Positions 8,764 to 10,392 of a DNA stretch of 64,000 bases are shown here, in pieces. The stretch spans positions 2,432,001-2,496,000 of the forward strand of contig CBDCWI010000002.1 of the NCBI GenBank assembly GCA_965223325.1, written 5' to 3'. A model generated the notes under the pieces. That model was not told the origin of the DNA, searched no databases, and saw only the letters and a list, made by a program, of their open reading frames with translations. A program made the translations under genes and the position numbers. This stretch comes from Candidatus Multivoradales bacterium (GTDB lineage Bacteria; Acidobacteriota; Thermoanaerobaculia; Multivoradales; Multivoraceae). Position 1 is the stretch's first letter. The number at the start of each line of letters is the position of its first letter.

Positions 8764-8958
8764 TCAGTCTTCGACCAGGCGCACGAGGTGCGGGATCTTC
8801 TTGATCATGCCGCGCACCGCCGGCGTGTCTTCACGCTCAACGACGTGACGAATGCGGCGCAGGCCGAGGCCGCGCAGCGTGTCGCGCTGCTTCTGGGTGC
8901 GACCGATAGGACTGCGGTACTGCTCGATCTTGATGGTTGCCTTCTTCTTCTTGGCCAT
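8764..8958 (-). CDS. rpmD: 50S ribosomal protein L30
   Basis: [20 protein letters not shown]...[15 protein letters not shown]; TAATG overlap with the rpsE stop. Confidence 0.96.
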
Positions 8959-9506
8959 TACGAAGCTTCTCCTGCGACCTCCGGCCCGCCGGCGGGCTGC
9001 GGCGCGACCTCGTCGGTAACCAGTGGCAGGCCGCGAAGCTGCCGCACCTGATTCTGGCTGCGCAGCGAAACGAGGGCTGCAAAGGTCGCCTTGACGACGT
9101 TCTGCGGGTTGGTGGTGCCGAGCGACTTGGTGAGGATGTCCTGGACGCCGGCACATTCGATGACCGCACGCACCGGTCCGCCGGCAATGACGCCGGTACC
9201 TTGCGAGGCTGGCTTGAGCATCACGCGGCCGGCCGAGAAAACGCCGGTGACTTCGTGCGGAATCGTAGTCCCCGACATCGGCACGCGAATCAGGTTCTTC
9301 TTGGCGGACTCGATTCCCTTACGAATCGCCACCGGAACCTCCTTCGCCTTACCCGAGCCGTAGCCCACGCGCCCACGCCCGTCACCAATGACAACAAGTG
9401 CCGAGAACGAAAAGTTCTTACCACCCTTGACTACCTTGGTGACGCGATTGATGTGGACGACTTGCTCGAAGAAGTCTCGATCTAGTCGGTTGATTTCCCT
9501 GGCCAT
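8958..9506 (-). CDS. rpsE: 30S ribosomal protein S5
   Basis: [29 protein letters not shown]. Confidence 0.98.
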
Positions 9507-9966
9507 GTTCTAGTTCCTGTTCTTTGTCTCTTCTGAGCCGCACGGCGAAGCCGTGCTTGGCGGGAAGCTCCCTGGCTGGGAGCATGATCCTCATCATGCT
9601 TCTAGCCAGGAATGTGGACGACTTGCTCGAAGAAGTCTCGATCTAGTCGGTTGATTTCCCTGGCCATGTTCTAGTTCCTGTTCTTTGTCTCTTCTGAGCC
9701 GCACGGCGAAGCCGTGCTTGGCGGAAGGCTCCCTGGCTGGGAGCATGATCCTCATCATGCTTCTAGCCAGGAATGTGGACGACTTGCTCGAAGAAGTCTC
9801 GATCTAGTCGGTTGATTTCCCTGGCCATGTCTTAGTTCCTATCTCTTTCTTGGCTCCCACCTGAGCCTGGTCCCACCTGAGCCGCACGGCGAAGCCGTGC
9901 TTGGCGGGAAGCTCCCTGGCTTGGAGCATGATCCTCATCATGCTTCTAGCCAGGATCCCTGGCCAT
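9451..9966. repeat. Tandem array: three 79-bp double-hairpin elements (9533-9611, 9694-9772, 9877-9955) alternating with duplicated rpsE 5' ends; 161-bp period
   Basis: ATGTGGACGACTTGCTCG... recurs at 9451, 9612, 9773; hairpins GCACGGC-GAA-GCCGTGC and CCTGGCTGGGAGCATGAT-CCTC-ATCATGCTTCTAGCCAGG. Confidence 0.95.
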
Positions 9967-9990
9967 GTCTTGTTGAGGCGAAACCGCACA

Positions 9991-10377
9991 TCAGAATTCG
10001 AGCCCGCCTTCTCTCGCCGCATCGGCGAGGGCTTTGATCTTGCCGTGGTAGACGAACCCACCGCGGTCGAACACCACCTTCTTGACGCCCTTATCGAGAG
10101 CGCGCTCGGCAACCAGCTTGCCCACCGCTTCGGCCGCACCCTTGTTCGAGGTACCACCGGAGACCTGCGAACGCACCGCAGACTCCAGGGAGTTCGCCTG
10201 CGCGAGGGTGGTGCCATCGGCATCGTTGATCACCTGAGCATAGATGTACCTGAGGCTCTTGCTAACGGACAGACGCGGGCGCTCTTCGGTACCGGTCACC
10301 CGGTGACGAATGTGGTAGCGCTTGCGCTGTCGACGGTTCTGTCTGAGCAGGGTTCTCCTGCGTCCTATGGAGCTCAT
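9991..10377 (-). CDS. rplR: 50S ribosomal protein L18
   Basis: [34 protein letters not shown]. Confidence 0.98.
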
Positions 10378-10392
10378 TCTCTAAACACCTTT

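Follow-up and report, generated by a model that had tools for sequence, protein, structure and literature searches.

The interval between rplR and rpsE in a Candidatus Multivoradales bacterium holds three tandem units in which a small structured repeat is joined to copies of the start of rpsE, the gene for ribosomal protein S5. We conclude that this array probably goes back to one old insertion at the rpsE start that was followed by local tandem amplification. The rpsE array is a local duplication, odd yet explainable, and implies neither a new gene-capturing system nor a dedicated capture function. It shows that a small structured repeat is tolerated in the spc operon, which is among the most conserved of a bacterium, and tracing the repeat in related genomes documents a CTAG-bounded repeat family, located mostly at stop codons, in Thermoanaerobaculia.

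The window analysed here comprises 64,000 nt of contig CBDCWI010000002.1 (positions 2,432,001 to 2,496,000; assembly GCA_965223325.1). All genes of this stretch are on the minus strand according to the ORF list (Table 1). The gap from rplR to rpsE measures 484 nt, versus 13–198 nt in 15 relatives. An earlier reading of the letters without database searches (the sequence-only reading) had described an insert of about 480 bp with three near-identical 79-bp elements and copies of the rpsE start, and this description was confirmed with Tandem Repeats Finder and a repeat search. The former reported a period of 161, 3.0 copies, 91% matches and a score of 770 for positions 9451–9955. The latter returned 161-nt copies at 9451–9611, 9612–9772 (99%) and 9795–9955, the last with only 63% ungapped identity because linker 3 is longer. 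Each unit is made up of a 79-bp two-hairpin core, a linker and an exact copy of rpsE nt 1–56. In mRNA sense, the rplR stop is followed by a 24-nt spacer, ATGGCCAGGGA (11 nt of rpsE), core 3, linker 3 and 56 nt of rpsE, then by core 2, linker 2 and a further 56 nt of rpsE, and finally by core 1, linker 1 and the intact gene.

Table 1. Features of the rplR–rpsE junction (positions of the window) and sister repeats elsewhere in the genome (positions with contig prefix C1 or C2).
Feature	Position	Strand	Remarks
rplR (ribosomal protein L18)	9991..10377	-	stop TGA at 9991–9993; ORF list, tblastn to relatives
Native 24-nt spacer after rplR	9967..9990	-	lacks a Shine-Dalgarno-like run ahead of the first ATG
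11-nt copy of the rpsE start, ATGGCCAGGGA	9956..9966	-	opens a 6-codon uORF (MARDPG, then stop); the stop is the element TAG
16-nt exact direct repeat	9956–9971 = 9818–9833	-	encloses the 11-nt copy of the rpsE start
Core copy 3	9877..9955	.	hairpin B and hairpin C; 1 difference from copy 1
Linker 3, 48 nt	9829..9876	-	hairpin A remnant, internal 16-nt duplication, purine-rich AGGAA run before ATG
56-nt copy of the rpsE 5′ end, exact	9773..9828	-	21-codon uORF, ends at TAG inside core copy 2
Core copy 2	9694..9772	.	2 differences from copy 1
Linker 2, 26 nt	9668..9693	-	identical to linker 1; CTAG AAC at its end, before ATG
Second 56-nt copy of the rpsE 5′ end, exact	9612..9667	-	same 21-codon uORF as the copy at 9773–9828
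Core copy 1	9533..9611	.	sequence comparison and folding
Linker 1, 26 nt	9507..9532	-	rpsE leader; AGGAA about 8 nt before ATG; left unpaired by mRNA fold prediction
Intact rpsE (ribosomal protein S5, 182 aa)	8958..9506	-	84% identity to the same-genus orthologue, from residue 2
194–198-bp three-hairpin subfamily, four head-to-tail abutting copies	C2:90914-91687		begins just after a gene stop
194–198-bp subfamily, single copy	C2:952624-952818		
194–198-bp subfamily, diverged copy	C1:1991186-1991324		
209–213-bp subfamily, three abutting copies	C2:1640908-1641533		CTAG at both ends; has the TTGGCGGGG module
Array of period 158	C1:1214894-1215117		behind a gene end, paralogous among the three arrays
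Array of period 153	C1:1218252-1218479		as above
Array of period 151	C1:1222524-1222911		as above

The three cores differ pairwise at 2, 1 and 3 positions, and both 56-nt copies are identical to the real rpsE start (9451–9506). The two downstream units differ at just 2 of 161 positions, linker included, as plain tandem duplication gives, which counts against the repeated insertion that had been proposed for them. Linker 3 is about 30% diverged from linkers 1 and 2 and is set off from them by a 21-nt gap. The earlier statement that linkers differ between copies consequently stands for the upstream linker (48 nt), which is strongly diverged, and falls for both downstream ones (26 nt), which are identical. 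What was read as host-derived spacers consists of a linker and copies, all identical, of sequence from the neighbouring host gene, and the whole is a plain 161-bp tandem repeat.

In core copy 3, hairpin B has a 7-bp stem with a GAA loop on the + strand, and hairpin C has an 18-bp stem. Both hairpins are much more stable than shuffled sequences: folding as RNA gave z = −5.97 for the + strand and −5.17 for the − strand, and folding as DNA gave −5.72 and −5.19. The G–U pairs were said to favour the + strand; they do, with a small asymmetry (RNA folds of −49.2 vs −43.1 kcal/mol), and one of these pairs is missing from the third copy.

Read support came from Logan contigs of four runs, representing at most three samples of one study that is possibly the source of the assembly, placed on positions 9200–10200. 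A 161-nt contig corresponds to 9451–9611, and a 60-nt contig crosses the junction between element and rpsE fragment (9582–9641). From the presence of this junction contig it follows that at least two units are in tandem. In three runs the depth relative to the flanks was 1.9–2.2x for the unit and 1.8–2.1x for the junction; the fourth (X3) gave 1.4x and 1.15x, respectively. Flank contigs end at 9480 and 9926, none spans the array, and positions 9642–9742 and 9812–9913 are without a contig, which should not be taken as a sign that these stretches are absent. The copy number of three is the figure of the assembly, and this number and the small differences between copies could partly be assembly products. 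That the array as such is an assembler echo of a locus with one unit, or some other number, is highly improbable. No contig or read spans the array, one run has a depth of just 1.15–1.4x, and two copy differences are paired homopolymer shifts (GGGAAG/GGAAGG and CTAAGAC/CTAGAAC), a pattern typical of long-read consensus errors. However, the junction contig was found in all four runs without differences and requires at least two tandem units, unit and junction reach 1.8–2.2x flank depth in three runs, and an echo would not have invented the different linker of the third unit.

The 79-mer occurs in this genome at the rplR–rpsE locus only, and the best match of a family profile search outside that locus has E = 2.4e-5. 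At E ≤ 1e-5, four of the 61 genomes compared from this order had a match to it: this one, G001 (same genus), G002 and G007. Alignment of the G001 copies with their flanks defined a full element of 138 bp with three stem-loops (A, B and C) and CTAG at both ends; the flanks are unrelated, and beyond CTAG the ends share no inverted repeat. Used as a query, the G001 element had 18 matches in G001 (six at 95–100%), 30 in G002, two in G007 and none in G003; G002 also carries a 175-bp variant in which hairpin C is enlarged. The 79-mer of the window corresponds to hairpins B and C, positions 58–127 of the 138-bp element, at 80–86% identity, and in an alignment of 19 sequences the window copies are without most of hairpin A. 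The element is thus longer than the 79 bp first assigned to it, since linker 3 still has a 12-nt exact piece of hairpin A as present in a same-genus copy, a piece that units 1 and 2 have lost. The proposal of a non-autonomous structured element is borne out, as the core aligns to a dispersed non-coding family in G001, G002 and G007. Uniqueness to the locus, by which that proposal was to be judged, applies within this genome, whereas in relatives the element is multi-copy and dispersed. Judged by sequence, the CTAG-bounded family appears to have been recently active in these relatives.

Pairing in hairpins B and C is accompanied by compensatory changes, with double changes at 4 of the 22 predicted pairs (for example, A–U to G–C in 9 of 19 sequences). 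In a wobble test on 20 family copies, G–U outnumbered A–C by 15 to 5 on one strand and by 23 to 4 on the other; the consensus folds differ, and the counts do not single out a strand. A known RNA family was considered and rejected, as no Rfam match came near threshold: the best hit for the window had E = 3.4 (16.3 bits vs a gathering score of 40), and the best for six loci of relatives had E = 0.38 (17.8 bits vs a gathering score of 50). A pattern scan of genome contigs returned 43 stretches, among which the confirmed family copies were from Thermoanaerobaculia or Acidobacteriota MAGs; stretches in other phyla had no family match and were taken as chance hairpin matches. Scanning metagenomes with the hairpin-B pattern gave 16 stretches, eight of them confirmed family copies, all like those of G002 or of metagenomes, and window-type hairpin C was found in none of the eight. 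Closer relatives were also sought in metagenomes with a degenerate pattern for the N-terminus of rpsE, which yielded 0 matches. In the literature searched, we found no published description of small structured CTAG-bounded repeats in Thermoanaerobaculia.

The same-genus copy most like the window core is L035 (G001 C2:1709145-1709283), located about 12 kb from the G001 rpsE. It adjoins a gene whose orthologue in the present genome is at C2:2426881-2427381, just before the window. The end of L035 is TTAG, so the adjoining gene stops at TAA.

Family copies have a clear preference of site. CTAG, mostly as CGCTAG, marks 17 of 20 left flanks and 17 of 20 right ends. In 17 of 18 full copies at least one bounding TAG is the stop of an open frame no shorter than 95 aa, and several copies, lying between convergent genes, end such a frame at either side. 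The genomes are GC-rich and have few CTAG sites, with 49 others in 166 kb. Among those control sites in the same loci, 29 of 49 also close such a frame (Fisher p = 0.007), and because of this the association with stop codons is largely a by-product of the CTAG preference. No flanking direct repeat above chance was found within 80 nt of any of 35 copies in relatives, the longest being 6–10 nt; the one 15-nt flanking repeat reflects an abutting second copy. In L079:4289-4546 (G002), two copies abut head to tail and their common boundary is CTGG, not CTAG. When the flanks of seven same-genus copies were compared with this genome by blast in search of empty sites, at most one flank aligned, in four of the seven cases. 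The rplF stop (window 10378–10392), 15 nt before rplR, lies in a CTAG context (GCC TAG AAAGG) and is an unoccupied canonical target of the family.

The array in the window departs from this pattern. Its junctions, after rpsE nt 11 and nt 56, are not at CTAG, and the CTAG within rpsE (nt 22–25) is unused in all copies. The sequence-only reading had seen here a habit of inserting into gene starts with target duplications of variable length. Such a habit is not supported, on two counts: a long flanking duplication accompanies 0 of 35 copies in relatives, and family junctions elsewhere are CTAG, usually at TAG stops, whereas those of the window are not CTAG.

The weaker profile matches in this genome are sister subfamilies that have CTAG at both ends and a central module of a hairpin plus TTGGCGGGG. 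Several form arrays (Table 1). In the arrays with periods of 151–158, every unit carries the central module along with a GC-rich hairpin resembling a terminator and a palindrome tagged with GTAG; the converging gene appears to take its TAG stop from the last GTAG. Copies within an array resemble one another far more than they resemble dispersed copies, and we therefore infer that local tandem amplification is common for such repeats in this genome.

The rplR–rpsE spacer is labile in this family, as its length range among the 15 relatives shows. Among these, long hairpin-bearing spacers were noted in L050 (G001; 198 nt), L052 (G003; 180 nt) and L054 (G008; 111 nt), and in the G008 spacer the rplR stop is immediately followed by three CTAG motifs at short distances from one another. 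An 11-mer and a 12/13 match between the linkers and the G003 spacer fall in a low-complexity purine tract and were disregarded. None of the relatives carries the element between rplR and rpsE, and a significant echo of the rpsE start was present in none of the eight spacers that could be searched, the other 7 of 15 being too short. Small insertions seem to have landed at this junction repeatedly.

We propose the following history for the array. One diverged copy, as an insert of about 122 nt, would have reached the 5′ edge of rpsE in an atypical insertion. A 16-nt duplication with the start codon in it would have bordered the insert, so that the intact gene remained downstream with a new purine-rich leader. 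The element, this leader and rpsE nt 1–56 would then have been amplified in place to three units, the tandem duplication occurring twice or by unequal exchange. A likely route is that replication switched template or stalled at the base of the 18-bp hairpin and that the units then recombined unequally with one another. Duplication is preferred because long target duplications are absent from the family elsewhere (35 copies), because this genome has no other copy to serve as a source, because sister repeats form local arrays here, and because clusters reiterated together with flanking DNA have already been published (PMC3733652). The missing source copy also tells against the repeated insertion of the sequence-only reading.

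Re-insertion of element plus linker with a 56-nt duplication and tandem duplication give the same product, which sequence alone cannot separate. Each model needs one coincidence of breakpoints: for duplication, a left breakpoint at the element end; for re-insertion, a target starting at the end of the resident element. The left breakpoint is indeed the exact element end (TCCTGG... after both ...GGGA and ...CACAT), which counts against duplication. Under random duplication this would be roughly a 1-in-100 coincidence, so that hairpin stalling or an end-specific enzyme is needed; the element ends at the base of the 18-bp hairpin, where replication could plausibly stall. Three further observations weigh on the same side. 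Microhomology is not visible at the novel junction. Linker 3 is about 30% diverged while the cores differ at 1–3 of 79 positions and the rpsE copies at 0 of 56; this linker mosaic is not predicted by a simple series of duplications and needs gene conversion of cores and rpsE copies or fast slippage in the purine tract. Finally, the 16-nt flanking duplication is unlike the family elsewhere, and neither junction is at CTAG.

The mechanism first suggested for the locus was end-directed local re-insertion, which we consider unlikely. A trans-acting enzyme, for example a HUH/Y1 transposase acting on hairpin ends, would copy element plus linker a few dozen nucleotides downstream, making long and variable target duplications (13–16 nt, then 56–58 nt), and the survivors would be those events that rebuilt the essential rpsE start. 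It would account for the joining of one element terminus (TCCTGG...) to two rpsE positions, nt 11 and nt 56, and the two linkers terminate, directly ahead of ATG, with a (mutated) CTAG in the manner of family ends. The family, moreover, has subterminal hairpins and lacks inverted terminal repeats, as ssDNA transposons do, and this genome has 28 matches to Y1_Tnp (PF01797). Against it, none of the 35 family copies elsewhere has a long flanking duplication, the target of the family is CTAG and yet the rpsE CTAG at nt 22–25 was passed over, no further copy exists in this genome, and the second duplication would need to start exactly at the end of the resident element.

The search for partner transposases bears on the same question. 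PF01797 was matched 28 times in this genome, 6 times in G001, 13 times in G007 and 0 times in G002, and DDE_3 (PF13358) 0, 0, 2 and 1 times in the same order; neither count tracks the number of elements. In particular, G002 has 30 family matches but no PF01797 match (genome 91% complete, 440 contigs). At E < 0.01, no family copy was found beside any of the 11 transposase loci fetched (0 of 8 Y1 loci, from 47 matches, and 0 of 3 DDE loci), which again speaks against re-insertion. The Y1_Tnp matches of this genome, unusually many for RAYT-like genes, include clusters at C2:4455510-4486968 and C1:2126128-2143849; the frames are about 320–350 aa, a few about 175 aa, and several are near contig ends.

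A wider version of the enzyme-driven account would take the CTAG-tagged three-hairpin repeats as an undescribed acidobacterial REP-like ssDNA branch moved by a HUH/Y1 enzyme of the host, the rpsE array as the outcome of local, end-specific replicative events in which tens of target nucleotides are duplicated, and its uORF-hairpin units as setting S5 translation. We regard it as quite unlikely. If true, insertions into the start of an essential gene would survive by rebuilding it. A new mechanism would be at hand only if the end-directed model were proven.

With one old insertion and local tandem amplification as the preferred history, the question arises of how the operon copes with the array. 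The extra starts open short ORFs, a 6-codon one once and a 21-codon uORF twice, and each stops at a TAG in the next element. The native 24-nt spacer is without a Shine-Dalgarno-like run, whereas linker 1 provides one ahead of the rpsE ATG. A scan of the array and operon detected no promoter-like site and, on the mRNA strand, no terminator-like site. As predicted from the sequence, the array would be tolerated because its uORFs stop at the TAG of the next element and because the last unit gives rpsE an unpaired AGGAA leader. The extra units may thus be rendered harmless short uORFs by the duplicated start codon together with the element's own TAG.

The same features could be read as signs of selection. 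The array would then be a translational or mRNA-stability module for S5 that uncouples rpsE from rplR, whichever of the two models explains its origin, with three uORFs, each with a Shine-Dalgarno sequence and ATG, and strong hairpins tuning rpsE expression. All three extra starts are in frame to end at an element TAG, AGGAA occurs in the linkers while an SD-like run is absent from the native spacer, the real leader is predicted to be unpaired, the rpsE copies are 100% conserved although non-coding, and neither a promoter-like nor an mRNA-strand terminator-like site interrupts the operon. However, recency or gene conversion would account for the identical copies just as well, the frame match of two junctions has a 1-in-3 chance, no relative shares the element at this junction, and the rpsE-start echo is lacking from all eight testable spacers of relatives (7 of 15 were too short). 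We hold selection of this kind to be decidedly unlikely. The locus also carries a warning for annotation, as tandem copies of a gene start can yield false alternative starts and small ORFs.

Among known systems, a CRISPR array was rejected: the repeat is at least 79 bp vs 24–48 bp, and the "spacers" are identical host-gene copies rather than unique foreign sequences. Mycobacterial MIRU are tandem units of 50–160 bp in operon gaps, with short ORFs in the direction of the flanking genes. The rpsE array resembles them as a series of tandem units in an operon gap with short ORFs in gene direction, but its units combine a hairpin element with copies of the downstream gene start, and its uORFs do not overlap the flanking stop or start. 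MITEs such as the Neisseria Correia elements or IS630-type elements targeting CTAG/TA are non-coding, 100–200 bp long, dispersed, inserted at a short palindromic target containing TA, and can alter expression of neighbours. The CTAG family is likewise non-coding, 100–200 bp long, dispersed and on a short TA-containing palindromic target, and may in the same way alter expression of neighbours. Its CTAG at both ends could represent a 4-bp or TA duplication, or a target plus an element end. Unlike MITEs, the family has no terminal inverted repeats beyond CTAG, and DDE_3 (PF13358) is absent from this genome and G001; an inverted-repeat MITE was rejected on the ground of these ends.

Miniatures derived from IS200/IS605 (palindrome-associated transposable elements) have subterminal hairpins, no terminal inverted repeats and a conserved tetranucleotide at the left flank and right end, which abutting head-to-tail copies share. 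The CTAG family matches them in its subterminal hairpins, its lack of inverted repeats, the conserved tetranucleotide 5′ of its left end and at its right end, and the sharing of this tetranucleotide by abutting head-to-tail copies. It differs in that a non-exhaustive search revealed only whole or shortened small copies and no parent with a transposase between the same ends, in that copy numbers do not track PF01797, and in that no strand bias of G–U vs A–C pairs was evident in the family.

REP sequences are GTAG-tagged imperfect palindromes of 20–40 bp whose terminus often supplies the stop of the flanking ORF and for which a link to HUH/Y1 (RAYT) enzymes has been proposed; in their clusters, units may recur in tandem and take along flanking DNA of varying extent (PMC3733652, Di Nocera et al., 2013). 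Set beside REP/BIME, the CTAG family differs in its tag, CTAG (GCTAG) instead of GTAG, in its fixed mosaic of three hairpins of about 138 bp (175 bp in the variant) instead of a 20–40-bp palindrome, and in that no RAYT gene flanked by CTAG-family repeats was found among the 8 Y1 loci fetched of 47 matches. At rpsE, the reiterated flank is, in addition, coding sequence, namely the 5′ end, with its start codon, of an essential gene in an operon. Strict membership of both the REP and IS200 groups failed because the tag is CTAG and not GTAG, there are three hairpins, and neither the 8 Y1 loci nor the non-exhaustive search for a parent yielded a flanked RAYT or a parent. The likeness to REP/BIME lies in small stem-loop repeats at gene ends whose TAG terminus supplies the stop (17 of 18 vs 29 of 49 controls) and in tandem clusters that include flanking DNA, namely the rpsE array and the other arrays of this genome. 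By analogy, the CTAG element would work like a REP/BIME-type or an IS200/IS605-derived miniature.
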